Shown: positions 1-41,957, numbered from the whole stretch's first letter. The stretch: 63,923 nucleotides of DNA, filler included, from Basidiobolus ranarum (GCA_040143965.1; 4 parts of 4 records of this genome joined end to end with filler, not necessarily neighbours in it); one strand, 5' to 3'. Notes: generated by a model not told the origin, from the letters alone. Made by a program: numbers and translations.

Positions 1-1485
1 GTGAGCGGATGTTTCATAAACTACACGAGCCATATTTATCGCAATCTGCTAACCAATGAATCTAAATCCCGCTCTCACACGAGGCTGTTGGTGGTGCACC
101 TAGCTTTGAAAGATGCTTTTGGATGTTTTCGTATCGTTCCTATTCAGAGAAGTTGGTATAATTTTGACTGCTATTGTGATGAAACCTACCGTTTCCTCCA
201 ACTTGCTTAATTTGTCACGCTAAAATATATCCGGAATGATGTAGCACCAAATTGCTTAAATTTGATTCAAAATGGAGTAGTCCATTAGCCAGAGATAGAA
301 TTCCCGCATTTATCAAGAAAGAGATTGAATTCCCTCATATTCATCATATTGGTGGGATTAGCAAGCAATCTATTTTCCTGTTTCCAGAGCCTCTGTTGGA
401 TTATTCTCACAATTCCCCTGAATGAATTCAGATCTACAACGCAGACCACAAGGGTGATGACCGAATACATCTTTTTGTAAAGGTAGTAGTCGTGTTAGAA
501 CACCTTTTGATATGAAGTGTTCAGGCTAAAAGTCTGCCTACTAGTTAATGTAGTACATTCTCAACTCTTCGTTTGAATGAATCGGAGTGCATATAGATAT
601 ATCTGTTTCAGTATATAAGTGAGCACTTCATGAAGTTCATTGTTTTTCGCCAAGTGATTATGCGTCATTGAGTCATTTGGAACTCGAAGAATGATGCTGG
701 ACCCGGTAATTTGCATAGTATTTTGGGATGCATTAGCTATGACTTTGTATCTGTTGAGCCAGAAAAATTAGCCATCTTAACCACGACAGATCCGTCACGA
801 CAAAATAAACTTGATGAGCGTGCTTGGTGGCAGGGTTGTTTATGCTGTGGATACGCCGTCATAAATATCCCCCTATTTGATTCTGTTTGAGGAGAAGACG
901 TTTCGTATTATCGGTTCCCATTAAACTAAATCAAACCTCTGAGCTTTTCACACTCGTTTCTAGAACAATATTGGGATTTGAACTGTGGTTTTTAGTAGGT
1001 TTCAGAATAGAAAGACTTTTCATATATGCTTAGGGCTCCATATGGATGCCGCCTTCGAAGTCAAGATTCTTCTTCTTGGCCAAAAAGTATTTAGCCATTG
1101 GTAATATCCATAAGAGAATAAAGCAAACAAGGAGCTTTTATAGGGGCTAGGTATAAAATACGTTACGTTGAAAGCAGAATTCAAGCTTAGTCGTTCTGTG
1201 AAATCAGTTATATAAAAATACCTACTGATCAACATCTTTAATATTCTTTGCATCAGTACATGTATGGTGTGAGTGTAGACTGACTACATAGATGAATTCC
1301 TTTAGTTTCCAGTAGGGCACTGAATACCTCACATCAAGAGATATTTGAATAATGAATCTATAAATTTGGTACCAAGAGTTAATACTATCTTGAAGCGCAT
1401 ATATCTAACAAATCGCGCAGTATCACTGAATGCATCATAATACTTAAAGACTGCACGTCGCTTATTGTATGCTCGAGTATCAGAA

Positions 1486-4400
1486 ATGACTTCTTACTCA
1501 GATCCAGATAAACACCTCAATCTACGAAGTTTACTTGACTTCTCATACTTGCGTTATAAGAGGTCCAAAGGATACACGGTAAGCTCTAACCAAGGCTTAC
1601 TCACTTGCATCATATACCTGGATAGTATTTACTAAAGATTTAACATAAAGGAGCCGTATTTATTGGACTTGGACAGTAAGCTTGAGGAGGTTGAGTCTCC
1701 ATACACAAAAGACAATATTAGCCTGTTATCCAGTCCGGAGATATGTTCAAGCCCTAATGAACCAAAGGATTCTCGAAGGATTTGCCTTGAAAACTGTATT
1801 CCTTTGATAACTAAATTTCGTATGGTTGAGATGTAACTAATCAATATTAGATATTTCAAGGTATCACGAAGATGCTTTTGCTAAAGCTCTGGAAATATCT
1901 AGAAAACAGAAAATCGAGGTATAAAAATATACCTATCTACTTGTTCCTTGTTTTTCATTGTATTTACCAACTATTTTATGAAAGCGGCAATCCATATATC
2001 AACACTACTCCATATTATTGGAAATCGATCCATTGAAGCTTATACATCATGATGGTATTTAGTAGCTATTTATATGATAATCTTATATCTCTATTCATTT
2101 CTGCACAAATAGTACAACTAGGCCAAGATCTTTTAGGGGGATTTCAGAATCATATTCTGGATTTGATATCAAGTGTTTGTCTCGAGATACTTCGATTTCA
2201 ATCGGGACCCGCTCACAAAATATTTTCAGAGCAGCTGCATCTCATTATCCGACTCGAATATTTCCCATCCTTCGTAGAGTATGTATTTGGGTATTTTCAG
2301 CTACTTCGTATTTCTCCTAAATAAATTGAATACAGACGTCACTTAGATTCACCCGCCGAGTGTCTTTTGCAGCTTCAAACGGCAAAGAAAGCCTCAAATA
2401 GCGAATTCTTCCAGATCACTGGTATCATCGTCGAAACTAAAAATCCTGTTCATAACTTGTTAGTGCATATGAAAGCTTGCAACTCTAAATAGATACTAAA
2501 TCTAATTACACTAGAATCAACCAAACCTATAAATGTAATAATTCTGGATGTAATAATCCAAATTACATTTATATCACACTAGTTCGAAATGGGTACAAGG
2601 TTACTAGACGATCCGACTTGAATACTTTTATCGAAATTATCCACCTGTTCGTCAAGTCTAATTTTGAGTAGAACATGAATTAATGTGTTAATATGCTATT
2701 TTTATATCTAGAAACCATGCTAAACATATCGACAAAGATTGTTCAAACTGCCAAAAGGAGATGTCTGAATTGACTAATGATCGCGTGTATCTGGGTATCG
2801 AAAATTCACAAGTATTTTTATAGTATAGCTTGAGAGTGTGTTGACGTTATTTGTAGATAGGCAAACCGTCATTCTTCAGAGTTTGGAATCAAAGATGAAG
2901 GGTTACAATTTTAATCGTATTGGTTTAGAACTACAAAGTATAGTTTTTATCTATTACTCACATGAGCTGTTAAATGAATCTAATTCACTCACAAGACGAA
3001 ATGGTCGACAGCTTACACAAAGGAGTTGTAGTTGAAGTAGTGGGGATAGTTAAACGGGGTGTAGATTCTGGTATGTTCTCGTATATATCGTACACACGTT
3101 TTCACCATAGATATATACTCAAGTACAAATTGTAAGCGGTAGTTGAGAACCGACTCAGAACTTATGACAACAACCTGGAGTTTTCAGTATGAATAAGAAT
3201 CTATTAGATCATAGTTTTTCGTCTACTAATAAGGCAGCAATAGGTTTATTGCTATACTCTGTTGGAATATGTAACCAACCTATTCATTATATAATCTCGA
3301 TTACATACCAGAAAATTAATGCAAAACTATACATACGTATAGAGGGTCAACTACAGTTCAAGTTTTCCAAAGAAAGCTCTCCCCATCATCCTGAGAAATT
3401 GGATACCGCGGATGTCTCTCTTCCCTACAAATTCAAATTATGGCCCGTCCACTTTAGATAAAATTAAAAAGTCGGATATATGGACATATTTGCAGTATAT
3501 GATTGATAGATTTTCAGGTAAATAATTATACCACATTTTTGTTGCTATTTTAACTTTAATTTCTCGCAGCTGACATACTACCGAAATCATTGTGGCGAGC
3601 TCTAAAAATGTCTTTGCTATTAAGGTGCGATGCATATCTATACCATTATAATATCTATTCGGAGTAGTAATATCGATCTGAATTTAGCTTGGTTTTAGTT
3701 GATTCTGAAGCCAGTGAACCGAGTCAAGGGAAACTTAACATCATGGTTATAACCTACGGTCGCATACCAGTATTGCAGAGGTTCCTTAAATACGCATCTG
3801 CTTTCTCGCCGTAAGTATGAATGAACAAAGCTTATTTCCAATGTCTAAATCTCATATTGTTGATAGCTCTACACATTATTCATTTCTACCAAATGGTGTC
3901 AAATTTCACCAACTTTTTCAATCTCGGAGTAGGTATTTATTTTCTTAACAAAGAGAAGCGTATTCTCTCTTGAGCAAATGTCCACTACTGACAAACTTTT
4001 AACTTGAAAGGGGATTATTTTCCTTTAAGTAGAAACGGAATCTTATTGTTTGATTTCTCAATACTCCAGCAACAAGACTATCCATTTCTATCATCCAGTG
4101 AGTGCATCCCGTGTTTTGTTGAATACATCAACATATATTTCTATTAACCCCAATATAGTATTGGCTAGTGAATCGACATATGACCAAGAAGAGGAACCAA
4201 CGACCAATACTCTAAATACTTGCTTTTGGAGTTATGCAGATGATATTATCTCATGCGAAGCTAAGAAATCTCGGAAGTATTCTAGGGTATAAATTATCAT
4301 GATTTCTTAAATGAATCTTTTCTAAACCACTACTTCATTAATAGCAACACTCAGATGTCACCTCTCTTTGCTTGAATCAGTAAGTGTGAAGAAGCAAGAG

Positions 4401-5280
4401 CGATCAAACCAGTTACCCATTTAACGGTTTCTTAGATTATTTCCAATTGTTTTACCTGTTTATATGTCGCAAGAACAGGAGAGTATACTAGCTTCCCACC
4501 TGTTACATAGTTCTTCTGATAGTAGTGCTGACGATTTGAACGATCTCGCCAGAGTAAACTATATTCTATATTTTTGACAAGAACTACACATTTACTTTTA
4601 TTTTTAGTTCATTCAACTAGCACGAGAGACTAAGACTAGGTTTACTACTCTTTACATTAAGAAAATATTTAGAGTTCTTTTAACTTATCAATGATAATCT
4701 AGATTGTCGCCAGAGTGCGAGTTTCTTTTAAAAAAATACTTTCTGGCTTATCGAAAGTTCATGATTCAAAACTTGGTTCAAGATGGAAGCTTAACTACAA
4801 TGAAGGTTTTATTTTCTAATTCACAATAGAAACTTGAGCAAAATATTAATTAAAAGTAGACTCTGATCAGCTTGGCGACCGCTTACTCGAAGGTAATGTT
4901 GTTAGATTTGAACCTCAGGTTGTACACTCATCTAAAACAACAATTAGTTACGACTTAATAATCTAGCAGGAGCAGAAGAGGCAGTCATGAGGTAAAAAGC
5001 GATCTAGTCTTATGAGAGGCATTCCAGTAGGGAGTCTAAACATTCTACAAATAGTATTGTTATGTTTGATGTGATTATCTGCGGCAAATATAATCGATCT
5101 TTACTAAGGCCTCAATGTGATTCAACTTATCCGTATGAGAGTATTGTGGTAAGTGTGAGCAGTTTATCAATTGTATTGGCAATGCTTTAATACTAGGGTA
5201 ATATACAGGAGATCTTCTCATATCCTTACTCAGATATCCTACTTCAGGTGATGAATCAATTGAACCACCTGGTTTGCTAG
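1486..5280 (+). CDS. MCMDC2: MCMDC2-like (MEI-217/218-type) catalytically dead MCM-family protein, about 26 short exons
   Basis: Hand-spliced GT-AG exons give, in order: SILLEIDPLKLIHHDVQLGQDLL...SVCLEIL...QLHLIIRLEYFP (MCM N-domain); FFQITGIIVE; Zn finger YKCNNSGC...CSNCQKEMSELTNDRVYL.DRQ; OB strand VVVEVVGIV; ILPKSLWRALKMSLLLSLV; degenerate Walker A LNIMVITYGRIPVLQRFLKY; degenerate Walker B NGILLFDF; NTCFWSYAD; lid LSPECEFLLKKYFLAYRK...TLISLATAYSKLRL...MFDVIICGKY; stop TAG 5278-5280. These blocks are colinear with human MCMDC2 as I recall it. The start codon and junctions near 2600-2710 and 3130-3345 are uncertain. Confidence 0.82.
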
Positions 5281-6269
5281 CCCTAACGCTAAATGGAATT
5301 TTATGTGATAGCCAACATTCTATTCAAACCGTATATATTTTATAATTGCAGAATAAATAGCCTATGCTTAGGAGATTAAATGTTTCATATTAATCTAATT
5401 TTTAAATAGTTTTGGTCAAACATTAGTTTCCTCTTTAGGAGAAGAGAGATCCACCAATAAGTTCATTGTTACTCGTTCAATGTTTACAATAGTAATAAAC
5501 AAACCACTGTAGAATCCTTATGACTACATGAGGTCATTACATAGCAGATCGACTGCCTAAAAAATACCTCGCTAATGGAAGACACAACGGGAGGAATCCT
5601 TGGTGTGCTCCTGCATCTTCTCCTAAGTGTTTGAGAAGATCCTCAAACATTCAATAACTAATTAGAATTTATTGATGTATAGAGTTAGTGAGTCCAACGA
5701 AGCAGTCACACCATAAGAACTTTGGCATTATGGCTGGTAGCATATTGTGGCTACGGTTGTCCGACTTTTCAACTTGCTCGCATAAAAGCCATTAAAGCCT
5801 CTTCGCCATACTAGGAGTTTATGTTGCAGTAATGATCCCTGCATTAAATGCGACTATTATGTCTACTCAAATTATCTATTCTCCCGACAGTTTAGATCAC
5901 TTGTCTCTACTGAATATTGGTCCCGCGCCATAAGGATGTCCAAATCCGCTCTAGTATATCCGCATAGATATGCTGTGATCTACTTTGTCTATATAATCAA
6001 ACGGAGTATTTCTTTTGTCTCGAATCTCTAGGCTACTTCATATTCTTCAACTTTTGAGGCCAATTCCCAGGCCTTTCATTTGTATATTTACAGTTCTATG
6101 AATACTGAATATTCTACATATTTCACTTGTTGAGTTACAACATACAGTTCAGTGCTGGTAGTATTTCGATCAATTTTATGCGAATAGTCATATACATTAA
6201 GCATTTCATTTTTTATTTCCACTCACTCCACTTCTCTATTCTGACTACCAAACATATATACAAGCCATT

Positions 6270-9200
6270 ATGTCAAGCATAACTACCGAGCAGATGCTTG
6301 AATCATCGACGGAGGCCTCTCATCTTATACTACGTCCAACCATAGATTTGAGTGATTGTGTCCAACATGTAATTCATTCGATACAAATCAATCTTGACTT
6401 AATATCTTCGACTCTCCAACAGCCCGAAGACGTGAAAGAAATATCAAGTGAACCTATTCAAGTTTCGATAGCGAATAATCTTCAGAATATCCTTATTGAG
6501 GTTGAAAAATGTTTGTTGCAACCAACTGGGGAGGTACAGATCCCATCACCAAATCCACCGTTGGTACCACTTGAATCTCCGATGGAATTTCATCATACTA
6601 AAGATTTGTTAAAACAAAAAGCGAAAAATATCCGACCGTTGTTAGATGACTTTGAGCAATGCTTTGGACTAATCAATGTCAAACCCGAAGATGAAGTAAC
6701 TTTGGAGCATTCTCCATCAATAACTGGCCAGGAAAAGGAAACCCCCGGATTAACCCTAAGTAATGAAAATCCACAATCATGGCTTAAATCATATACGGAC
6801 CAAATGGACACACTTCAAATAGATTTACAAAGTCAAGTCAAGAAATTTGAAAGATTCATTTCAAATGATTTTACTATATCAGAAGTGGAACGAAACCAGA
6901 TAAAGGGACAATTACTCCGATTCGAAGATATCATGAAGAAATATATTGTTCAATTATTTCAATATCTTCAGTTTGATAACTCAGATCAATCCACTGATTC
7001 TATTCTTTCAGATGTGAACAAAACAATCGGTATACAGACCTCGGAGGAGCTTTCGATCGTACAATTGTCACATAATAAGTATGTTCATCATAAAGTAAGA
7101 ATTTCCGAACTGTACGAAGAGTTGAAATCTACGAAATATCAGAGTGAACTATATCAATCAAGTCTAATGGAAGCTGAATTACGTGAACAGGAGTTCACCA
7201 AAGCCATCTTTGAATTCAACGAACAAATTGACATGATCCAAGGGCGACTATACACCAGTCAACAATATACCGATTTACTTGAAAACGAAGTGATCAAACT
7301 GTCTCAACGGAACGAACAACTGGCAAAGAAGCAAGAAAGTGAGAAATTCAATATCACATTACAAGAAATTCGGGATGACTTTACTAGAGAAATCACTAAT
7401 TATAAGGAAAAAATGATTCAACTTGAAGAGGAGCTTGAAACTACTCTTTTACATTTGAAAGCGTCCGAAGAGAATGTGGATCATTTCTACTCTATCGCTG
7501 GGGCTTGGAATAAGGAATTCAAGCAAATCTTACAAACACTCACTATAGCAAACAAGAAGGAACTTTTGCTAGATTCCTTAATATCTACCATGGCCTCATT
7601 GGAGAATGTGGGAAATAATGAGATATTGTCTGATCTGGATCATCTCGAAAGTCTTCGCCAACAATTGTGCGATACTGAGGCCAATTTAAAGGATGTATCG
7701 TCACGTAAAGATCAAATGGCCATTGAATTAGGGGATGGTCAAATTCATCTTCAAATCGTACTTGAGAATTCGTCGAGATTAGAGAGACAACTTGAACTAG
7801 CCAATATCGGACAATCCTATGTAGACTCAATTCACCAAAAGTTGGAAATGAATGAGTTACTTGTAGCTAAATCGAACTCAGAATCGGAATCTGAACAACT
7901 GGTGTTACATACTAAGACTGAGGAACTAATCGATAGCGTAGAAAGAGATCATCTAACTCCCATTCAAGATATACCAATCTTAATGGCAGATACCAATAGG
8001 CAATTAGAAGAAAATAAAACCTCACTCTTCGAAGCTGCCCAATTGAAAGAAGTAACAGAAATTGTCCAGAGTATTGCGCAAGATCTTGGGCTACAAATTG
8101 ATGAGAAGGATGCAGGAATACTAAGCCTAGCACCGAGTCTTCAGGATGTAAGGGAAGAGCTCTTGAAACTTACTAAAAGGGCTGGCCATATTGAGGAACT
8201 AACTGAGGTAATTTTAGAGGCAGAAACCAAAGAAGAAGAATATATTCGAGCCATATTCGAGTTGAGTCAAGAGGTCATACAAGCGAAACAATCCCAATCT
8301 GATCATGAAAAAATCACTTGTTTACTAGAGTCGGCAATTCAAGAGGAGTTAGCTTCGAATAAGAAGATTTGTGAGGAGCAACGCTTTGAACATCTGGCCA
8401 AAGAAAAAGAATATCTGAGCACTGTATATAGTCTGAATGCAGAGCTTAAGGAGAGGGAAAAGTCACTTATGGAGAGTGAAAAGCGTGTCCTTCTATTCGA
8501 AGCCCATACCGAAGATACAATCACGTTATTGAAATCAAATGAACAAGTGATTTCTCAATTAAGAGAAGAGCTTACCAATGCTGATATGACGGAGAGAGAG
8601 TATCTTCAGCGATTCGTCGAGTTAACCAAAGAGCTCGATCATACGATACATTCTTTGGTTGAGCAGCAAAAGCAGACTCATTTGTTCGAATCATCAGTTA
8701 ACTGTAAGCTGTTGGAGTTAGAAGAGATGAGACTCCAAAATAGAGACGCTCTTCATATTTCCAGAAATGAAATATCCACCTTAGAGAGCCATATCAAGCA
8801 ACTTGAGTTTTCAGCCGGAGGACTCCAAAGCATTGTTGAGATGAAAGAGCTTACCATTCAAAATCTTCAAGCTCAAGGAAACGAGGGTGTAAAGCGTCTT
8901 CATGATCTGACCCAAGCGTTAGAGCTACAAAACGTGGCTCTTCATGCACACTTTGATTCTATACTTCGTTTGGGGATAGACATCGGTCATGATTCTACTC
9001 AGTCTAACCTATTGTCGATACTCAATTCATTACCACAGAAGTTACAAGATTGGCTGGTGGATAATGAAAATCAATTTCGAGACCAAAAGATCTTGTTCAC
9101 GAAACAGGTAGAGGAGCTTGAAAGTGCTTTAATTCAATGCAAGTTGAAGATTACTGAGCAAGAGAAACTCCTTAACACCTCATTGCTAAGGGAGCAAGAA

Positions 9201-11222
9201 ATTCTCGAGCGATCGCGATTACTGCAGATTGAAGATGAGAAAAAACTTTCGAATTGTACACGACAGCTAGAAGAAACATTAACGGAGTTGAAAACTGCTC
9301 AACAGTCCATTGATGAACTCCAGACAGAGAAGTCAAAGAGTACTCAACCTTTCATTGATAATTTGGAGAGTGACCACCAAGACGATACAAATCGCGCCTC
9401 TCAATCAATTGATTTCAATGCTATTAGTGCCTCAACATCTGAACACGACCATGACTCCGCTGTTGCTTTAGATGATGAATCAGAGAGTAACGAGGAACAA
9501 GAAATCAATCCTAATTCTGTCACCAAGTTAGCAAAGCAGCTTTCGGAGGCACAAGCTCAAGTACGGACCACTCAAGCTTCTTATAGAGATATGGATGACC
9601 AAATGGAACTGTTGCACCACAAGTTAAAGGAGACAAAGATTCAACTTGCTAGTTGTGATCGTAGTCGCGAAGCTTTCGCAATTTTCATCTCTGATATAGG
9701 AGCGATGCTGGGCGATCCAAGATCCGAAATTGAAGATGTTATCACGTTCTTTTTCAAACAAGAGGCAACTCTTGAATTGAAAGAGGAAACCAGAAGATTA
9801 GCTTTTGGGAATTTCAACTCATCCACCCTTTCCGTAGTTTCTAGATCAAATGAGAATCTTATCAAGAATGATATCTCGTACACTTCTAAGGAGTCTACTA
9901 GGGCTCGGGCATCTACATTCTCTGGGAATACTGCTCAAGAATTTCGAAAACTACGAAATGAGTTGAATATCTATGCAAATGAAATTGAAACTTTGAATGC
10001 TCAAAAGAAAGATTACGAAAAGCAATGTCATAGCTTTCGAGAGGCTATCGTGGTATCGCAAACACGCGAGGGAAGACTCAGTAGAGAGGTTCAAGAACTT
10101 CGTTCTAGACTAGAAGCTCATAAGGTTGAGTCCATGTGCGCTCTGGCTGACCTTCAAACCAAGTATCGCGAGTCATTTATGGAGGTTGATGTTAAAAATA
10201 GACAACATATCGAGGAATTGGAAAAAGAACTCTTTATTACCAAAAAAAGGATTGTACGTCTCAAGGAACAAGTTATGTTGACGGAAAAAGTATGTACAGA
10301 TGCAGTCGCTTTAACAGAGCAGCTAGAGATCGAACTTGCGCGTACCTGGAAGGAGAAACGTACTGCAGAAAAGAAACTATTGGAGTCACAGCAACGATGC
10401 GAGGATCTAAATAAAGACTTAAGAGTCAAGGAGATTGAAGCCTTAACACAGAAGCAACTCTACGAAAGTAAATTGAAAGATTTGGATTTAAAAGTTCGGA
10501 ATCAAGCCAAATCTATGACCAATGCTAAAAGAGAAGCTACCCATAATTCATCCGAAAAAAGAGCAAGCTTTTACCAACAGCTTCGTAGTAAGTGGAGTGG
10601 TAGTACAACTGAAGAATCTCGCTCTATCATGGAACCCCGAACTATAAACGAGTCAGAAAAAGGTTTTCAAGAGGAAGTGGATATGCATGTAACAACTAAT
10701 AAGTTGCTACAAACAGAATTATGTGAGATTCAAGCCAAAACAGTTGAATTGGAGCTGCACAAAGAATTATTGGAGACTCAGCTCAGTGAATTACGCTCCC
10801 TTCACGATCAGTCAGAAAGAACTTTAACCCAACTGAGGCGTGAGGCTGAGGAAAATCAACAAGCTACTCTAGTTTCACTTGAAAGAGCTCAAGCAGAAAA
10901 GCAGAGTTCAGCACGTGTGGAACTTGTGACTATACAAGCCGAACGCGCATCACAAGAGCGCATCATATTGGAGCTCAAGAAAGAGCTCTGCAATTTACAC
11001 GACGATCAAAATCAAAAAACAAATGAACTGCAAATTGCTAAACAAGAGATTGAGGTCCTGAGGCGTTTATCAAGCACTAATGCTGAGACAAGGGCCGTTC
11101 TGGAGGCTTTGACTCGAGAGAAGTTCAATTTAGAGACAAAGGTGAATGAATTGGAAACTCAGTTAGACGATATTCTAGCAAAGAATGTGGCGTTTGCAAT
11201 GGAATTAGCAGCGGTAAAATAG
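6270..11222 (+). CDS. 1650-aa single-exon, E/L/Q/K-rich long coiled-coil protein, function unknown
   Basis: Uninterrupted 4953-nt ORF with heptad-like composition throughout and an internal repeated motif. No globular domain recognised. Confidence 0.85.
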   Translation: MSSITTEQMLESSTEASHLILRPTIDLSDCVQHVIHSIQINLDLISSTLQQPEDVKEISSEPIQVSIANNLQNILIEVEKCLLQPTGEVQIPSPNPPLVPLESPMEFHHTKDLLKQKAKNIRPLLDDFEQCFGLINVKPEDEVTLEHSPSITGQEKETPGLTLSNENPQSWLKSYTDQMDTLQIDLQSQVKKFERFISNDFTISEVERNQIKGQLLRFEDIMKKYIVQLFQYLQFDNSDQSTDSILSDVNKTIGIQTSEELSIVQLSHNKYVHHKVRISELYEELKSTKYQSELYQSSLMEAELREQEFTKAIFEFNEQIDMIQGRLYTSQQYTDLLENEVIKLSQRNEQLAKKQESEKFNITLQEIRDDFTREITNYKEKMIQLEEELETTLLHLKASEENVDHFYSIAGAWNKEFKQILQTLTIANKKELLLDSLISTMASLENVGNNEILSDLDHLESLRQQLCDTEANLKDVSSRKDQMAIELGDGQIHLQIVLENSSRLERQLELANIGQSYVDSIHQKLEMNELLVAKSNSESESEQLVLHTKTEELIDSVERDHLTPIQDIPILMADTNRQLEENKTSLFEAAQLKEVTEIVQSIAQDLGLQIDEKDAGILSLAPSLQDVREELLKLTKRAGHIEELTEVILEAETKEEEYIRAIFELSQEVIQAKQSQSDHEKITCLLESAIQEELASNKKICEEQRFEHLAKEKEYLSTVYSLNAELKEREKSLMESEKRVLLFEAHTEDTITLLKSNEQVISQLREELTNADMTEREYLQRFVELTKELDHTIHSLVEQQKQTHLFESSVNCKLLELEEMRLQNRDALHISRNEISTLESHIKQLEFSAGGLQSIVEMKELTIQNLQAQGNEGVKRLHDLTQALELQNVALHAHFDSILRLGIDIGHDSTQSNLLSILNSLPQKLQDWLVDNENQFRDQKILFTKQVEELESALIQCKLKITEQEKLLNTSLLREQEILERSRLLQIEDEKKLSNCTRQLEETLTELKTAQQSIDELQTEKSKSTQPFIDNLESDHQDDTNRASQSIDFNAISASTSEHDHDSAVALDDESESNEEQEINPNSVTKLAKQLSEAQAQVRTTQASYRDMDDQMELLHHKLKETKIQLASCDRSREAFAIFISDIGAMLGDPRSEIEDVITFFFKQEATLELKEETRRLAFGNFNSSTLSVVSRSNENLIKNDISYTSKESTRARASTFSGNTAQEFRKLRNELNIYANEIETLNAQKKDYEKQCHSFREAIVVSQTREGRLSREVQELRSRLEAHKVESMCALADLQTKYRESFMEVDVKNRQHIEELEKELFITKKRIVRLKEQVMLTEKVCTDAVALTEQLEIELARTWKEKRTAEKKLLESQQRCEDLNKDLRVKEIEALTQKQLYESKLKDLDLKVRNQAKSMTNAKREATHNSSEKRASFYQQLRSKWSGSTTEESRSIMEPRTINESEKGFQEEVDMHVTTNKLLQTELCEIQAKTVELELHKELLETQLSELRSLHDQSERTLTQLRREAEENQQATLVSLERAQAEKQSSARVELVTIQAERASQERIILELKKELCNLHDDQNQKTNELQIAKQEIEVLRRLSSTNAETRAVLEALTREKFNLETKVNELETQLDDILAKNVAFAMELAAVK

Positions 11223-11519
11223 AAACAATGACTGCATTTCGTAGAGTTGTACAACTGCTGCTATAATAGTGTTGACCTTCTCGTGTCCATTCAATTTATT
11301 TTGTAAATATTCATCTGTCAATAAATGAAATCCATCGATCTTACCTGGCTAGAGTCCCGGTTGAAATCCAAAAACAATGAATTCTTCTGATTGGTGAGGA
11401 TTTGTTTTGTTTTCAGATGGACGATGGCCATTTATAACTCGAAAAACATTTCAAGCAAAGCTACCAATATCAACCAAATATCCAACCTAAGCCAATATTT
11501 CATACATACTTGATAGAAA

Positions 11520-13039
11520 ATGTCTGTTTACCAAGAGGCTAAAGCGTTGTTTCGTCGCTCAACTATACCAAACCAACTGGTGGGTAGAGAAGAAGAGCGT
11601 GAGGTTTTAATCCACTTCTGGGACGAACATGTTACGGGTAACAAACCTGGTTGCTTATATATTTCTGGCAGTCCCGGTACTGGAAAAACTGCCCTCTTAA
11701 GTCAGTTATGCGAAGAGTTCAATCCCGACGAAGTTGACCATAAGGTTCAACTTATCAAGATCAATTGCATGAGCGTAAATGACCCAAAGGCCATCTATAC
11801 CAGACTCCTGAGTGAAGTTGGAGCTAGCAGTTCGGCTTCTAAGGATGCCTCTAAAACTTTAGAAAAGAAATTTCTCCACGGAACCACCTTATAGTAAGTA
11901 CACCGAGTCCCCTCTCCTCCAAAAAACTCATTCCCTAATGCACAATAGTGTTGTCATTTTAGACGAAATCGACCACCTGATTACCAAAGATCAAGATGTT
12001 TTATACAAACTTTTTGAATGGCCCACTCTACCTGAAGCGCGTTTAACTCTTATCGGTATTGCCAACGCATTGGATTTAACTGATAGATTTTTACCTAGAT
12101 TAAGGGCTAAAGATTGTAAGACTTCACATCAATTACCTGTCAAGTGGACTGCCCATTGAAGAATTATCTTTTGTAGGTGAACCTCAGATTCTAAATTTCA
12201 ACCCGTACAAAGTCCCCCAAATCATTGATATCATCAAAAACAGACTTCTCTCGCTCTATAGTGAAAGTCAGCTTGCCGATTTGAATGGTTCAGGTAAAAA
12301 GCCACCAGTGCCCATTATGCAGGTGTCTGCAATTGAGCTGTGTGCTCGGAAGGTTGCTGCCGGAACTGGTGACTTGAGAAAAGCCTTGGACGTTTGTAGA
12401 CAAGCCATTGAAATGGTTGAACTGGAGAGAAAAAAAAGTAGTGAAGTTGACGAAGCGGAGACCTTGATAAGCGCACCGAAAGTAACTATCAAGCACGTCA
12501 TGAAAGTGGTGAATTCTATGCTGGGATCCTCTTCCATGAAGAAAATCCAAGATCTCAATCTCCAACAAAGACTGGTGCTTATTTCCTCCGTTTTATTAAG
12601 TAAAAGTAAAACGATGGAAATGTCATTGGGAACGGTACTCTAGCCTCATATTACATGGACACTCCCTATCATCAACTAACTCAATTTATAGCTATATGAA
12701 CGCTACATCTCTCTCTGTCACATCAACAAATTCTTTACTCCAGTCACCCGTTCCGAATTCTTTGATTTGACCAACATGATCGAATCTACCGGCCTGATCA
12801 TCATTGCTAAGGGTAAAGATGAGCTACTGAGAAAAGTATCATTGAATGCCCAGGAGGAGGATATTCTTCGGGGGATCAAGGATAATGAACTTCTACTACA
12901 AGTGTATAACGAGGGGCTGAGTCAGGTCAACGAAGAAGCCAGTCAAAGTGAAACTATGACTCCCAAGACTCCTCGTACTCGTGCTGCTAAATCAACAAGA
13001 AGTGGCACCCCAGCTCGTTCCCTTCGTCTCCGGGCTTGA
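11520..13039 (+). CDS. CDC6: Cell division control protein 6 (AAA+ ATPase plus winged helix), 4 exons
   Basis: Walker A LYISGSPGTGKT, INCMS, Walker B VILDEIDHL, IGIANALDLTDRFLPRL, GDLRKALDVCR. GT-AG introns start at about 11894, 12116 and 12635. Confidence 0.95.
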
Positions 13040-14919: not shown

Positions 14920-16032
14920 TCCATATTGGATCCACCCTTCAGGATCATCAAACCATCAGAGATCCATCACAATATTGGTGGCTTGCATTCTGCCAAGGAT
15001 TGTGATGGTGAGACAGCAGCTTCTTGACAATATTTCAATGTTATTGTTACATGTTAAAATTTTGATCCTCATATTTGGCAAGTGTTATTTCATTTCCAAT
15101 GATTTTTGCAAAAATCTAATTTTCAAATGGCAAATTACTGTGTTTACTGCAGTAGGAATTCAAATTAATATGCATGCCTTTATTTAGATATTTTAGGCTT
15201 TGTATACCAGCTGTAATGATAATCAAAGAATACAAGAATCTCATTGTGTTTAGTCTATACCTATGCACATACTTGACTGATCAGACATAGCTCAACAACA
15301 TCAATATGCTCTACCAGCAAACAAATGGTTGAAAAGTTGCTAAACATCTGAAATTATGAATAGCACTGACACTTGGTAAATAGCTGACTCTTGTTACTGT
15401 TCACAATGAGAATAAGCTCTTGGATTTTGGCAAATTGCTGTAAAGAACTCAGCCAAAATATCCCCAACTCGCAGTCAATAAATGTCCTGCCACAAGTAGC
15501 TGTGTCATTGCTTGAATAGATTACCCCACAGCTAAAAAATAATACTGCATATCTCAATCTATCTCACCAAGAAGTTCATCTTGCAGCTTTCCTAGAAATA
15601 CTGACAGATTATCACACAAACAAATTAGTTCAAATTATGGTGGTACTTACTCTGTACCTATGGATTGGGTTTTGTTGCTGTTATTGTGCTCAAACATGCA
15701 AAATCCCATGAGCACATTGAAAAGGGCCCTTTGTTGGAGGGTTAATATACTCTGGAGTTACCTTAACCCATTGCATTACATCCACAACTAATTTTGCTGA
15801 AACATTGTTAATCAGGTTAGCATAAGGTAATAGTAATGCTTTGACATGGAGCACCATTTCACCACAGGTGTGCTCCATTGGGAACTTCCAGAATGTATAG
15901 CAAGGGCCTATAATCTCTAAGCATTGTGAAAGATGCAGCAGAGAATAAATTGAATACCAGCAGAGATGCTGCCTCTCTTCTTTAAACCTGTAATAAAGTT
16001 TTTCATATCCAATTACAAAATCTTTGCACAGT

Positions 16033-16132
16033 NNNNNNNNNNNNNNNNNNNNNNNNNNNNNNNNNNNNNNNNNNNNTTAATTAATTAANNNNNNNNNNNN
16101 NNNNNNNNNNNNNNNNNNNNNNNNNNNNNNNN
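16033..16132. other. Artificial 100-nt spacer (N-run, TTAATTAATTAA, N-run)
   Basis: Seen directly. The linker has stops in all six frames and is identical to the other two spacers. Confidence 0.97.
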
Positions 16133-27896: not shown

Positions 27897-29630
27897 TCAA
27901 GAAGAGGTTACAATAGTTTGGTTGTCTTCGTCGCCTCCAGGTGGCTTGGTTGGCTCGACAAGGGGAGAATCAGTTTTCACGTAAGGTTGTAATAGCTCCA
28001 ATATAGGTTGAATTTGAATGATTTCATTCGCTTTAGCTTCAGTGAAGAGTATATCAGCATAAACACCTTCAATGAAGCATCGTCTGATGTATGGAATGAA
28101 GCAATTAACGAACAGTTCACAAAATTTTTCGAAGATCGATGTTTCTTCAGGACGACTTGACCACACATCTGATTTATAAATGGCGTATGCTTGGATAGAC
28201 TTTGAAGCGTCGAGTAAACACTGATTAATATGAACACTCAAATCTCTCATAATAGAGATAGGTGCCAATAGTCGAAGTGAGTTAAAGGCTGAAAGGAAAG
28301 AATTGGTAAAACGAGCTAGTGGCGGAAAATTCATCAACGAAGTGGGTGGTGCGAAAGCCGATCTACTTGTAGTTTTAATGGTTTCAGGGTTTAGTGCTTT
28401 ACTGTTGGTCAACCAGGAGACATTCTTTTTCATGACCTCTTTGATCTCCCATTTAAACTCTTCTGTTCCATCAGTGATGAATTCCTTTACTATGGTACTG
28501 ACTCTACGTTCAAATACATTTCCGATAATTTGTCGAAAATCCAATCCAATGCGACCTAGTGACATACCACAGAACATCGCTTGAGTGAGTAGTGAAGATA
28601 AGGCACTTATATCTTGAATAGCCGATGTTTGTTTCGTAAGAGTATCTGTAAATCGAATAAAAACCTGGGATATATAATCGGAGCAAATGCTTTTTGTAGA
28701 TAATTTCTCACTGACATCGAAGTTAACTTTATGCTCCTTCTCATCCCCATCCCCATCCCCGTCCTCATTCTCACTCAGTGCGGTTTCTTCTTCGGAAAAG
28801 ATGGCTTTGTATTGACTTACGATATCAAAGAGCTCCTCACGGTACAAGTCAATATATCTACGTAGGAATTTTACCGGATCGATCATTTCCACCGAGAGTT
28901 CATGAATCAGTTGTTCAAGATACGAATCTCTTGATTTCAAGAATAATACTCGAAGTTCCGCTTCATTAAACACTTCCATGCGTCTCAAAAATCCAATCAC
29001 TCGTAAGCAGAGTGGAAGTTTGATGGGTCCACGTAAAAGCACCAATAACTGCGACAACATGTATGCGATAGACTTTTCTACATCCTGAGAGACTTGTTCA
29101 AGTAGATTGACTGTGGGGTGTCTCAAGCATAAACGTCTCACATGAGAAGATAGCTCCAAAGCTTCAGCATAATAACCATTTCTCACACAAGTATCTACCA
29201 ATTGAGGTATCTCCAAAACCTCCAAAAGGTTACTATAATTGTTTAATATCAAAGATAGTTTACTACGATCAGTCTGTATACTAGTCACTTCGACATTGAA
29301 GGAAGTATATGCCGTTTCCAAGGAAGGTAATACGGAAAGTAAAGTGGTTAATTTCTGGTCAATAGACGATAAGGTACTTGTCACGCTTTCGGAACAAGTG
29401 TAAGCACTAACAAAACCAAGATATTCTTTTTTCGCCAATTCTTTTAGCTCTTCGGTTACTTCTTCTTCCCGGGTTTCTAACAATATCGGCTCCTGACGTA
29501 AGTCATTCAAAGATAGGTTCGTCAGATGATCCAAGTAATCTTTACACCAATCCTCCTTGATGAGTTCTTTCTGGGTGGAGTCAACGGTAGATTCAATTAG
29601 AGTATGAAAATAATCCTCTATTTTCGACAT
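27897..29630 (-). CDS. COG8: Conserved oligomeric Golgi complex subunit 8 (Dor1), single exon
   Basis: LLEVLEIPQLVDTCVRNGYYAEALEL, IKLPLCLRVIGFLRRM, SLGRIGLDFR, PPLARFTNSFLSAFNSLR. Confidence 0.93.
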   Translation of the reverse strand: MSKIEDYFHTLIESTVDSTQKELIKEDWCKDYLDHLTNLSLNDLRQEPILLETREEEVTEELKELAKKEYLGFVSAYTCSESVTSTLSSIDQKLTTLLSVLPSLETAYTSFNVEVTSIQTDRSKLSLILNNYSNLLEVLEIPQLVDTCVRNGYYAEALELSSHVRRLCLRHPTVNLLEQVSQDVEKSIAYMLSQLLVLLRGPIKLPLCLRVIGFLRRMEVFNEAELRVLFLKSRDSYLEQLIHELSVEMIDPVKFLRRYIDLYREELFDIVSQYKAIFSEEETALSENEDGDGDGDEKEHKVNFDVSEKLSTKSICSDYISQVFIRFTDTLTKQTSAIQDISALSSLLTQAMFCGMSLGRIGLDFRQIIGNVFERRVSTIVKEFITDGTEEFKWEIKEVMKKNVSWLTNSKALNPETIKTTSRSAFAPPTSLMNFPPLARFTNSFLSAFNSLRLLAPISIMRDLSVHINQCLLDASKSIQAYAIYKSDVWSSRPEETSIFEKFCELFVNCFIPYIRRCFIEGVYADILFTEAKANEIIQIQPILELLQPYVKTDSPLVEPTKPPGGDEDNQTIVTSS

Positions 29631-29753
29631 GTTAGGCACCTTCCTCGCCAAGACAAACTAAATATAATAAGATGAATAATGCATAAACATACGCAGGCTC
29701 AATATTAAGATCATTCCGATTTATTTAATAATAATTGACCAAGAAGTTCAATT

Positions 29754-38381: not shown

Positions 38382-39963
38382 ATTTCTACATTGGATATAT
38401 AGAGTCTTACTATTTGTCATCGAAAAGATAAACAGGACTGTCACCAAGAAAAGAACTATAGAATGTAAATTTCTGCTTCCACATCAATATGGCAATAGCA
38501 CTAACAGGTCTAAGAAGCTGCAAAATCAAAATTTTAGAATTTCTCTGAGTGATGCTAATAAGCAAATCTAATGTCACCTCCTTTGTAATGTGATCACATT
38601 TGTTTATCTACAATATAAAAAGGAAAGTTAGTATAAGATGGTTTTGATTGATTCTTGCTAGGACATCCAGAGAAATAGTTCAGGCCAACTCTTGGTGATA
38701 CAAGTTCTTCATGGCAAGCCTACAGTTTTTTGCGAAGCCAATAACATTCAAAAGTGGAGTCATCAAACAAAGCCTAGTTCTTGCGTTTCCATAGTGTATC
38801 CAATATATTAGCGAATACTGATGATGTAGTAAGAAACTAGCTAATTAATACTTGGCTGGATACCAAGTGTACGTGCCGTTGAAGAAAGTAAAAGCAAAAA
38901 AGTAGCCATAAGAATATATTACTGTATGACTTGGATGCACTTAAAACATTAAGGTGTGTACAATAAAATAGAAGCTGAAGTTGGGGTATCTAGTGTTCTA
39001 TGTATTCTGGAGATGTCCCAAAAAATAGGTTCAATGCTGCAGAACTTTCAAGATGCAAATTCGATAGAAAGAATTTATAAATAAACCATAATTAAGATAT
39101 GAGTTATGTATATAAGTGTTTCTTCCTAATATTGAGTGTCTATCCCAGAATAAGAGCTCATTAGGTGGCTAAATAAGCAGATTGCTAAAAAGGATTAGGG
39201 AAGAGCGAGCGTAACTCAACACTTAAAACCTTGGGTTATAATATTCAATAACTATGGTGCATTATGCCATAAAACTCGAATCTTCATCCTTTCCTGACAG
39301 CCCAACTTAGTAATATTGGAATTGTGGGCGGGCGAGATAATATGAGAAGAGATTGTAGGTGATTCTGGAATTTTCGATCCCAGAGATGAATGGATACTTG
39401 CGGCCAAATCGGCAGTCACAGAGTGACGGTATTTTTCGGATGTGTCATATTGACTTGATATCGAATGCTAACATGCGTGGTTTCGATCCTCACTAGCAAG
39501 GATGCTTGGGGACCAAAGCTGGAGAGCAATGGCTGGGTGGCGAGGATTCGATGGGACTTTCAGATCCAGATAGTAGATGCTGATGGAACCAAGTAAGATA
39601 AGGCTAGTGTTGTGCGCAGAGCTTGTTCGTTCACGTTGCTCATAATAGAACAGTGGTATGAGATCATGGTGATGGGATGCATCCTTTTAAACTCAGTGGT
39701 CAATTTGCAACTGGAATTGAATCAAAAGCTTACTTTTTATGTCATCATTATGAACCAAATGGAACTAGATATAAAATTCTCATTGATTGGTCGTAGTACG
39801 CTTATCTGATAGTGGTTTGCAATTGAATCATGACAGTTTCCAAATCAATATTTAAGCCAGCTCGTTCCGTGTGTGAGTCTGAAATAGGATTTTTCACCAG
39901 AGCTGTTTGTTTCACTCTTCCCAGCTCGTTGTGAATGCGCTTATTTTGTAACCAATCGTAGTC

Positions 39964-40719
39964 ATGTCATCTATTATTCAACGCATCAGCTCGAGATACT
40001 CTCAACGCCTACATACACACCCTTTATCCACCTTGGCGTTAACTAACGGCGCACTTGCAGTTATTTCGGATATTCTAGCTCAGAGTATCTCTACGCCACC
40101 AAACCCCGCCCCACCCGAAGGTGACAATTTCATTAATACTGAGGCAGCCATCGCCGAGAAAAATTATAACTTTGCCCGTACTGCTCGCTTGTCTTTTTAT
40201 GGCTTTGCTACCGCTCCCTTGATCAACAAATGGTATACTGTCCTTGACAAAGGGTTCCCTTTACCTAAAATACAGGGCTCTAAGAATGTGCTGCAGAGCA
40301 GTGTTGTGAAGGCTGTCATCAAGCGCGTAGCTGCTGACCAAATCCTTTTTGCACCATTCGGTCTTGTTTTGTTTTTTACCTCGATCAGTATCATGGAGGG
40401 TGCTTCATGGGAAGGTATTAAGCACAAATTTGAGAAGGTAATGCAATGTGATATCATCTTCTAATATTCCCCTCTTACTAACGCATACTTGAACTAGGCC
40501 TACTTTCCAGGAATCACGGCCAACTATCAATTATGGCCACTAGCACAGATGATCAACTTCTTTTACGTCCCGTTGAAGTTTCGTGTTCCTTTTGCTTCAA
40601 CTGTGGGGGTTTTCTGGACTGCATACCTTAGCTGGTTAAACAGCAAGAACCCAGTTTCCTCAGATAGAACGACGCAACACCAATTAGAAGTCAGCGATCC
40701 TCTTCTTACAAAGATTTAA
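39964..40719 (+). CDS. SYM1: MPV17/SYM1-family membrane protein, copy 1, 2 exons
   Basis: HPLSTLALTNGALAVISDILAQ, RTARLSFYG, KRVAADQILFAP, ANYQLWPLAQMINFFYVP, FWTAYLSWLNS. Confidence 0.92.
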
Positions 40720-41191
40720 TACTACATCCGAATACCACTCTTTACCGTCTTCTCATAGTACATATTTACCTCAGTTCTCCATGGTCATTATTACAATCCT
40801 AGCCGCTTTAGTGCTGTGCTTTCACTATGCAGTACCTCATCCAGCCTCACACATGTCTATTTTTATCAGGTTACTGCACCTGTCAATAAAAACGATTCAC
40901 TTCAAATAAACTTATCTCTCCATAATGCTTTCAAAGTAGTCACAGGAAAGATATTTGCTTAAGTTGAGAAGCAGCACAATGATACAAAATTTAGTGGACA
41001 TTCTCATGAAATTTGATACGCCACATAAATCGTAAACTGTTGGATGATTGGACAGCGGGTCCAGCTGAAATTTTGATATTCCCAGACTTCGTGCTCTTGA
41101 TTATTACTCCTGTACCTTGGCCCGTTGCTGTTTAGATATATAGCGGAAGCTTAGTTAAAGCTTTGTTATTTGTCAAAGGCCAAATTCAATT

Positions 41192-41957
41192 ATGTCGTTA
41201 TTTAGACGTATAACGTCTACGTACACACACCGCCTTCAAACCCATCCGCTTTCAACATTGATGGTTACTAATGGCGCCTTGGCAATTATATCTGATGCAC
41301 TTGCACAGCAAATCTCGAAGACACCAAATCCAGCTCCTTCCGAAGGGGATGCGTTCATCAATACGGAGGCAGTAGTTGGTCAAGATGAATATAATTACGT
41401 GCGCACTGCCCGTTTATCTTTCTACGGATTTGCAACCGCACCACTGTTCAATAAATGGTATACCTTTTTAGACAAAAGATTTCCAATGCCGCTGAATCAA
41501 GCGAAAGAAGCGACAAAATCCGGTTTGAAAAATCCTGCGGTTAAGGCTTTGCTCAAGCGAGTGGCTACGGATCAGATTCTCTTTGCTCCTTTTGCGATTG
41601 GTCTTTTTTTCGTCTCCATCAGTGTCTTGGAAGGAGCTTCTTGGGAAGGTATTAAGGAGAAATTTGAAAAGGTATTTCTTTTAGTCAGTCTCTCTTTTGG
41701 CGACCCATAAATTCTCCAGTTTGTTAAAAAAATCGGTTTTATTATTTCACAAGGCCTATGTTCCAGGTTTATTAGGCAATTATCAATTATGGCCGCTAGC
41801 TCAGCTTGTGAATTTCTTCTACGTACCGCTCAGCCTTCGTGTGCCATTCTCCTCTACTGTGGGTATCTTCTGGAATGCTTACTTGAGTTGGTTAAATAGT
41901 AAGAATCCGCCATCAAGCAACCACCTGATACAGAATGAGCCTCAGAGCGAAAAATGA
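41192..41957 (+). CDS. SYM1: MPV17/SYM1-family membrane protein, copy 2, 2 exons
   Basis: Same motifs and same intron position as copy 1; ends FWNAYLSWLNS. Confidence 0.92.

Follow-up and report, generated by a model that had tools for sequence, protein, structure and literature searches.

The 63,923-nucleotide stretch of Basidiobolus ranarum DNA analysed here (GCA_040143965.1, filler included; referred to below as the window, with positions counted from its first nucleotide) contains at 1486-5280 of the plus strand a predicted spliced gene for a 752-residue protein of the MCM superfamily. The predicted protein follows the MCM domain order from the N-terminal domain to the lid, and its ATPase motifs have been replaced. 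We propose that this gene, of 26 exons, is intact and encodes a full-length but ATPase-dead MCM protein, which likely acts as a non-catalytic subunit and for which kinship to the meiotic factor MCMDC2 is favoured. The probability of this reading taken as a whole is estimated at about 0.55.

A 26-exon gene joined from short open stretches

The gene model was built with a splice-aware dynamic programme and hand curation, followed by tblastn of a related protein, P0121, on the window. The resulting coding sequence of 2259 nt (752 codons) opens with an ATG at 1486, closes with a TAG at 5278-5280, and contains no internal stop and no frameshift. Unspliced, the plus strand of the same interval holds only short open stretches. 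All 25 introns have GT-AG ends and are 52-82 nt long. The donors of 19 of the 25 begin with GTA, and the weak ones among the rest include GTTCGT, GTTTAC and GTTTTA. For a preliminary 24-exon version of the model, the GC content was 38.1% in exons versus 29.9% in introns, and codon log-odds summed to +30 in the coding frame and to -230 and -286 in the two alternative ones.

A preliminary description of this DNA, made from the sequence alone, had proposed a hidden gene of about 26 exons joined by GT-AG splicing from scraps of open reading frame (ORF), and had pointed to two junctions, 2600-2710 and 3130-3345, at which a frameshift might be forced. The first of these is a single 65-nt intron (2647-2711, GTTCGT...TCTAG) that maintains the frame. 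The second accommodates two micro-exons, 3143-3186 and 3244-3270, and the three introns around them (72, 57 and 72 nt); tblastn of P0121 on the window exposed this pair of exons, and that protein matches each of them. The proposed splicing is therefore upheld, with 26 exons, GT-AG ends at every intron, and ordinary introns and micro-exons where frameshifts had been suspected. Judged from its sequence, the MCM-like gene illustrates how a real gene of 26 exons can be overlooked by ORF-based scans.

Collinear homology to MCM proteins

The MCM profile used for comparison was derived from 113 archaeal loci collected by a Walker B DNA pattern, of which 51 complete ORFs of 550-1100 amino acids were kept. 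Against this profile of 51 archaeal MCMs the 752-residue protein scored 28.5 bits in HMMER (E 2.6e-11 at Z=1), with the matches falling into two collinear domains, the OB/zinc region and the lid. The top score among 500 residue shuffles was 3.0 bits, and the reversed sequence gave -3.2 bits. With hhalign, the protein alone aligned to the profile over 496 columns and residues 114-702 (Prob 96.3%, E 1.5e-9), and the protein together with P0121 over 493 columns and residues 115-702 (Prob 97.3%, E 2.3e-11), compared to a Prob of 1.9% for the top of 30 shuffles of the protein alone. The hhalign alignment is unbroken from the N-terminal helical subdomain through the zinc finger, the OB fold and the AAA+ core to the end of the lid, at an identity to the profile of 17% (measured by hhalign on the preliminary model). 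When six-frame pieces of the whole window were compared with the same profile, the top piece was an OB exon of this gene, 2996-3070.

The zinc finger is composed of a Cys-x4-Cys in exon 7 and a Cys-x2-Cys in exon 8, which align with the two Cys pairs of the profile; the spacer separating the pairs, about 40 residues, is unusually long. Compared to the archaeal and eukaryotic replicative MCMs (PF14551, PF17207, PF00493, PF17855), the protein has the same domain order and is collinear with them from subdomain A to the lid. In contrast to these proteins, it lacks the ATP-handling motifs and has the longer spacer between the Cys pairs, and its exon scraps and its relative P0121 fall below every Pfam threshold. 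A Pfam scan of 20 single-exon scraps gave no MCM match, and phmmer against the PDB with the Walker A scrap (exon 15) gave no match. The complete MCM architecture given in the preliminary description (N-domain, C4 zinc finger, OB fold, AAA+ core, lid) is recovered in the collinear hhalign alignment, with shuffles scoring far lower. The predicted 752-residue protein belongs to the MCM superfamily and has its complete body plan.

Replacement of the ATPase motifs

In the profile alignment, the Walker A position is occupied by ITYGRIPVLQ, from which the lysine is gone. The Walker B position reads LLFDFSIL, retaining the first Asp and having lost the catalytic Glu. The position of SRFD is taken by LFPIVLPVYM, with no Arg nearby. 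At the position of the sensor-2 Arg, there is a Lys in the 752-residue protein and an Arg in P0121. A pattern scan of the protein and P0121 found no [AG]x4GK[ST], GK[ST], hhhhD[DE], SRF or RFD. The corresponding scan of every plus-strand frame of 1400-5400 found no P-loop, GK[ST], D[DE]FD or SRFD, which indicates that no real motif is concealed by a mis-splice. Both the alignments and the pattern scans bear out the motif erosion that had been reported at first sight for Walker A, Walker B, the arginine finger and sensor 2. All residues that would bind or hydrolyse ATP are replaced in the predicted protein.

A relative in Basidiobolus meristosporus

P0121 came from a search in which the exon-15 scrap (window 3671-3814) was run with HMMER against the full set of 1.84 billion representative proteins. 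It is a protein of 435 residues and matches the scrap with 67% identity (E 4e-5). By cluster look-up it is ORY03275.1, 'hypothetical protein K493DRAFT_297530', of Basidiobolus meristosporus CBS 931.73, a species of the phylum Basidiobolomycota, Fungi incertae sedis, in the NCBI taxonomy. The earlier assignment of the gene to an early-diverging fungus agrees with the position of this sole identified relative, which puts the lineage among such fungi or close to them.

BLASTP of the gene model against P0121 gave 412 bits (E 8.5e-142), and 237 of the 409 pairs aligned by MAFFT are identical (57.9%). P0121 spans at least nine exon junctions of the gene model without a gap and has the same C-terminus. 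The longest identical runs between the two proteins are found in the blocks of the former Walker A, Walker B, sensor-1 and arginine-finger positions, together with the lid. Since the replaced motif blocks are common to P0121 and the gene model, the MCM-like gene is under constraint, and pseudogene status is unlikely.

It is noted that the public gene model of P0121 appears truncated and mis-spliced. It begins within the OB fold, without the N-domain, and has 18 extra residues at the position of intron 9; nothing in it corresponds to exons 14 and 21 or to part of exon 24. Two other candidate relatives were rejected as chance matches. One, locus L114 from a metagenome scan, has just an 8-residue seed pattern and a weak tail, with no other exon collinear; the other, P0122, was the second match among the representatives and is a bacterial-type repeat protein.

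Possible kinship with MCMDC2

MCMDC2 has been described in mammals and flies (PMC5070785, PMC6553819, PMC13060065, in excerpt). Excerpts of two of these papers (Finsterbusch et al. 2016, Hartmann et al. 2019; PMC5070785, PMC6553819) report that Walker A and Walker B are not conserved in the fly and mammalian proteins, and that MCMDC2 may modulate an MCM8-containing complex. For mouse MCM8, the link to MCMDC2 is repeated in an excerpt of a 2026 preprint (PMC13060065). As described in these excerpts, MCMDC2 of mouse and human and the fly pair MEI-217 and MEI-218 have an MCM-like N-domain and an AAA+ domain without conserved Walker A and B, like the protein here (PMC5070785, PMC6553819, PMC13060065). 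The likeness drawn here is one of motif loss, with the ESM Atlas structure neighbours of P0121 as a further lead. The proteins are also comparable in length, with 752 residues here and 576-678 for the MCMDC2 cluster representatives of the Atlas.

When the ESM Atlas was queried with P0121, the structure ranking was headed by two clusters named MCMDC2, with template modelling (TM) scores by query of 0.68 and 0.69. Additional MCMDC2-like clusters are found among the feature matches, at 0.90-0.91. The Atlas output names the Pfam 38.1 family MCMDC2_N (PF26063), and reports MCM_lid in 68-96% of the members of two chordate MCMDC2 clusters; the domain is unlisted for the arthropod MCMDC2 cluster. It should be mentioned that the Atlas model of P0121 has a predicted local distance difference test (pLDDT) value of 0.51 and that the Atlas itself grades its results as leads. 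An AlphaFold2 model of P0121 alone was unusable, with a mean pLDDT of 35 and a predicted TM score (pTM) of 0.27.

Several observations weigh against kinship with MCMDC2. The structure rows that follow the two MCMDC2 clusters are canonical and viral MCM clusters with practically equal TM scores (0.64-0.70). In the feature ranking of P0121, a viral MCM cluster comes first (0.94), and 12 of the 30 matches are clusters of the MCM-binding protein MCM-BP. P0121 matches no Pfam family at E<=10, MCM_lid included, in a model whose lid region is mis-built. No homologue was returned when 3343-3517 and 2037-2324 were used in word-index searches of longer proteins only, and the single relative recovered, P0121, is itself from Basidiobolus. 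In addition, the ciliate protein Mcmd1, as presented in an excerpt of PMC6922451, is a dead-MCM protein in a lineage far from animals.

A literature search on MCMDC2, fungi and Basidiobolus meiosis found no report of a fungal MCMDC2, and this search may have missed a taxonomic survey already in print. One paper, in excerpt, names both MCMDC2 and fungi, and its fungal mention concerns the loss of MCM8; the excerpt of another has MCMDC2 in the references only. In an excerpt of a phylostratigraphy paper, MCMDC2 is placed in strata 4 and 5 (PMC10380301).

Taken at about even odds, the favoured reading is that the predicted protein is a fungal counterpart and true kin of MCMDC2. The more specific proposal is that the gene would be a true orthologue of animal MCMDC2, that is, a mei-MCM subunit that predates the animal-fungal split and has since disappeared from Dikarya and model yeasts. 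We hold this proposal tentatively, as slightly more doubtful than an even chance. Of the MCMDC2-like factor announced in the preliminary description, the intact gene for an ATPase-dead protein with a full-length MCM fold stands, and orthology remains a lead drawn from the Atlas neighbours.

Alternative origins

The alternative that survives best derives the gene from a canonical MCM, for example MCM8 or MCM9, as a fast-evolved paralogue confined to the Basidiobolus lineage, where its ATPase would have been lost independently; it would then share no descent with MCMDC2 and could act in replication or repair instead of meiosis. Such an origin would find precedent in the dead MCM paralogues of flies, mammals and a ciliate (PMC6922451, in excerpt). 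It would also be consistent with a single relative from Basidiobolus and with Atlas TM values that fail to separate MCMDC2 from canonical MCMs. We have compared the protein to eukaryotic MCMs that were sought with an Asgard MCM core among longer proteins only, a search that returned mostly intein-bearing archaeal MCMs; the few eukaryotic records inspected were artefactual fusions, of MCM2, MCM4, MCM5 and one unassigned. Scores of the protein against MCM2 (Musa), MCM4 (Microtus) and MCM5 (Culicoides) did not exceed 0.7 bits, versus 21.6 bits against the top archaeal MCM. These values argue against a recent origin from the three subfamilies sampled. The possibility of a recent decayed paralogue, raised at the outset, is thus answered in part: the sequence shows no particular closeness to MCM2, MCM4 or MCM5, and the answer extends to those three. 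The 17% identity to the MCM profile further indicates that the divergence is not recent, and no MCM8 or MCM9 cluster is among the ESM Atlas matches listed. A Basidiobolus-specific paralogue is considered unlikely on balance.

Tetrahymena Mcmd1 offers a further comparison. According to excerpts of Shodhan et al. 2019 (PMC6922451), it has helices at the N-terminus, beta-strands, a putative zinc finger and a probably ATPase-inactive MCM domain, and it functions in meiotic recombination. Likened by these descriptions, Mcmd1 and the protein here are both MCM-derived and likely ATPase-dead, with N-terminal helices and a zinc finger that is putative in Mcmd1. The two differ at the C-terminus, where Mcmd1 has a winged-helix-like region (PMC6922451, in excerpt) whereas the protein here stops about 50 residues past the lid.

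A second alternative would make the gene a fungal orthologue of MCM-BP (Mcb1/ETG1), an MCM-binding chaperone with a motif-poor MCM-like fold. Both proteins are MCM-related without a working ATPase, and many language-model feature matches fall on MCM-BP: the 12 MCM-BP clusters among the 30 Atlas feature matches of P0121 are PF09739 MCM_bind clusters with scores of 0.93. PF09739, however, is matched neither by P0121 at E<=10 nor by the exon scraps, and no MCM_bind cluster is among the ten Atlas structure matches listed. The protein aligns to canonical MCM over the zinc finger, the OB fold and the lid, and this similarity is clear in the OB/zinc region and the lid. An identity as MCM-BP was rejected on the Pfam result, and we regard such an orthology as very improbable.

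A decaying pseudogene or an annotation mirage, in which a frame is threaded through the frequent GT and AG dinucleotides of AT-rich DNA, might be suspected from the absence of database matches for single exons and from the several weak donors (GTTCGT, GTTTAC, GTTTTA), but it is scarcely credible against 752 stop-free codons over 26 exons, introns held tightly to 52-82 nt, codon bias that is positive in frame only, MCM homology collinear over about 500 columns, and 58% identity, with the same C-terminus, to a protein that was predicted separately in a second species.

Exon structure

All 26 exons lie on the plus strand. Exon 1 (1486-1578, residues 1-31) starts at the first ATG after an in-frame stop, has the donor GTAAGC and is outside the coverage of P0121. 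Exon 2 (1651-1819, residues 32-88) encodes an N-terminal extension, with GT-AG flanks and the frame maintained. Exon 3 (1872-1918, residues 88-103) is preceded by a 52-nt intron that maintains the frame. Its 5' boundary is the least certain of the model: alternative acceptors at 1850 and 1860 would shorten the preceding intron to 31 and 41 nt, respectively.

The MCM N-terminal helical subdomain begins in exon 4 (1985-2054, residues 104-127), in which the hhalign alignment starts at residues 114-115, and continues as helical subdomain A in exon 5 (2113-2278, residues 127-182), aligned to the MCM profile from column 30 or so onward. The first OB strands are in exon 6 (2336-2458, residues 182-223), inside HMMER domain 1. 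Exon 7 (2515-2646, residues 223-267) contains the first zinc-finger Cys pair, KCNNSGC (2531-2551), at the Cys-x-x-Cys column of the profile; an in-frame 48-nt alternative intron, 2535-2582, would be compatible with the frame. The second Cys pair, DCSNCQ (2737-2754), falls in exon 8 (2712-2786, residues 267-292) and corresponds to the second MCM Cys pair.

The OB fold is continued by exon 9 (2861-2937, residues 292-318), which is matched by P0121 and lies in HMMER domain 1, and by exon 10 (2996-3070, residues 318-343), which carries the OB-fold signature strand, is matched by P0121 and is the top six-frame profile piece. Micro-exon 11 (3143-3186, residues 343-357), with the sequence ENRLRTYDNNLEFS, was located through P0121 alone, between GT-AG introns of 72 and 57 nt. 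Micro-exon 12 (3244-3270, residues 358-366) encodes VYCYTLLEY, of which seven of nine residues are identical to VYGYHLLEY of P0121. Exon 13 (3343-3517, residues 367-425) covers the end of the OB fold, the N-C linker and the first AAA+ helix; it is supported by the MCM profile, and its second half is matched by P0121.

Exon 14 (3570-3624, residues 425-443) is supported by GT-AG flanks, frame and the MCM profile, with no counterpart in the P0121 model. Exon 15 (3688-3810, residues 443-484) holds the Walker A position (3731-3799), where hhalign places ITYGRIPVLQ on the GDPG..KS columns in a block that is near-identical in P0121. Exon 16 (3867-3928, residues 484-505) is matched by P0121 without a gap over both of its junctions. 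The Walker B position (4034-4078) lies in exon 17 (4011-4097, residues 505-534), with LLFDFSIL placed by hhalign on the IDEFDKM columns and conserved in P0121. Exon 18 (4159-4286, residues 534-576) covers the helix-2-insert and sensor-1 region, aligned to the MCM profile, and its block CFWSYADD (4209-4244) is identical in P0121. The short exon 19 (4345-4379, residues 577-588) is matched by P0121. Exon 20 (4436-4553, residues 588-627) holds the arginine-finger position, where LFPIVLPVYM has no Arg and the block is identical in P0121, and the beginning of the lid.

The lid continues in exon 21 (4608-4639, residues 628-638), which belongs to HMMER domain 2 and is without a counterpart in the P0121 model, and in exon 22 (4703-4805, residues 638-672), which belongs to the same domain, is matched by P0121 and has the sensor-2 position at its end. 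A lid helix past sensor 2 is encoded by exon 23 (4860-4892, residues 673-683), supported by HMMER and by the alignment with P0121. Exon 24 (4948-4991, residues 684-698) is the next part of the lid, in HMMER domain 2, with a poor match in the P0121 model. Exon 25 (5055-5148, residues 698-729) completes the lid and enters the C-terminal tail, with a match in P0121, and exon 26 (5209-5280, residues 730-752) matches the C-terminus of P0121 and ends with the TAG stop at 5278-5280.

Surrounding window

The window is eukaryotic, with a GC content of 32-42% and neighbouring ORFs that carry COG8/Dor1, arrestin, cyclin, RhoGAP, GST and Cdc6/ORC-type domains. Its longest ORF, at 6201-11219 (+), is uninterrupted over 1673 codons and matches no Pfam family at E<=0.001. 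Two ORF pieces at 11517-11891 and 12104-12640 (+) carry AAA_16/AAA_22 and Cdc6/ORC-like lid domains. Together, the pieces of 11517-12640 resemble a replication-licensing gene of the Cdc6/Orc1 type, which would lie some 6 kb past the 3' end of the MCM-like gene. An N run at about 15693-16076 is an assembly gap (264 N in the window) and appears as X in a minus-strand ORF. A COG8/Dor1 gene with one exon (586 codons) lies at 27900-29657 (-), and its exact protein is present in the ESM Atlas from residue 10. The adjacent ORFs at 39952-40461 and 41159-41707 (+) have very similar N-termini and form an apparent tandem duplicate, the first of them being without a Pfam family.

Proposed role and implications

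Given the loss of its motifs, the 752-residue protein would be unable to act as a motor. Most likely it would serve as a non-catalytic subunit, the OB/zinc N-domain and the AAA+ shell of which may bind DNA and an active MCM-type partner. The model for such an arrangement would be animal MCMDC2 (MEI-217 and MEI-218 in flies) acting with MCM8/REC, a pairing thought to stabilise meiotic strand-invasion intermediates. Since sensor 2 of MCM proteins acts in trans, one may speculate that the basic sensor-2 residue, Lys here and Arg in P0121, could enter the ATP site of a neighbouring subunit.

MCMDC2 and the fly mei-MCMs are required for meiotic recombination. The sole database relative of the MCM-like gene is annotated as a truncated 'hypothetical protein'. 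If the predicted protein is a fungal counterpart of MCMDC2, the origin of the mei-MCMs would lie at least in the common ancestor of animals and fungi, the gene would be a further case of an ancestral gene retained by an early-diverging fungus, and a microbial system would be available for studying an ATPase-dead mei-MCM. If it is an orthologue, the motif blocks frozen between the two fungal species would mark a conserved non-catalytic interface, and the MCM8-MCMDC2 recombination module would, by implication, be older than the animal-fungal split and survive in Basidiobolus.

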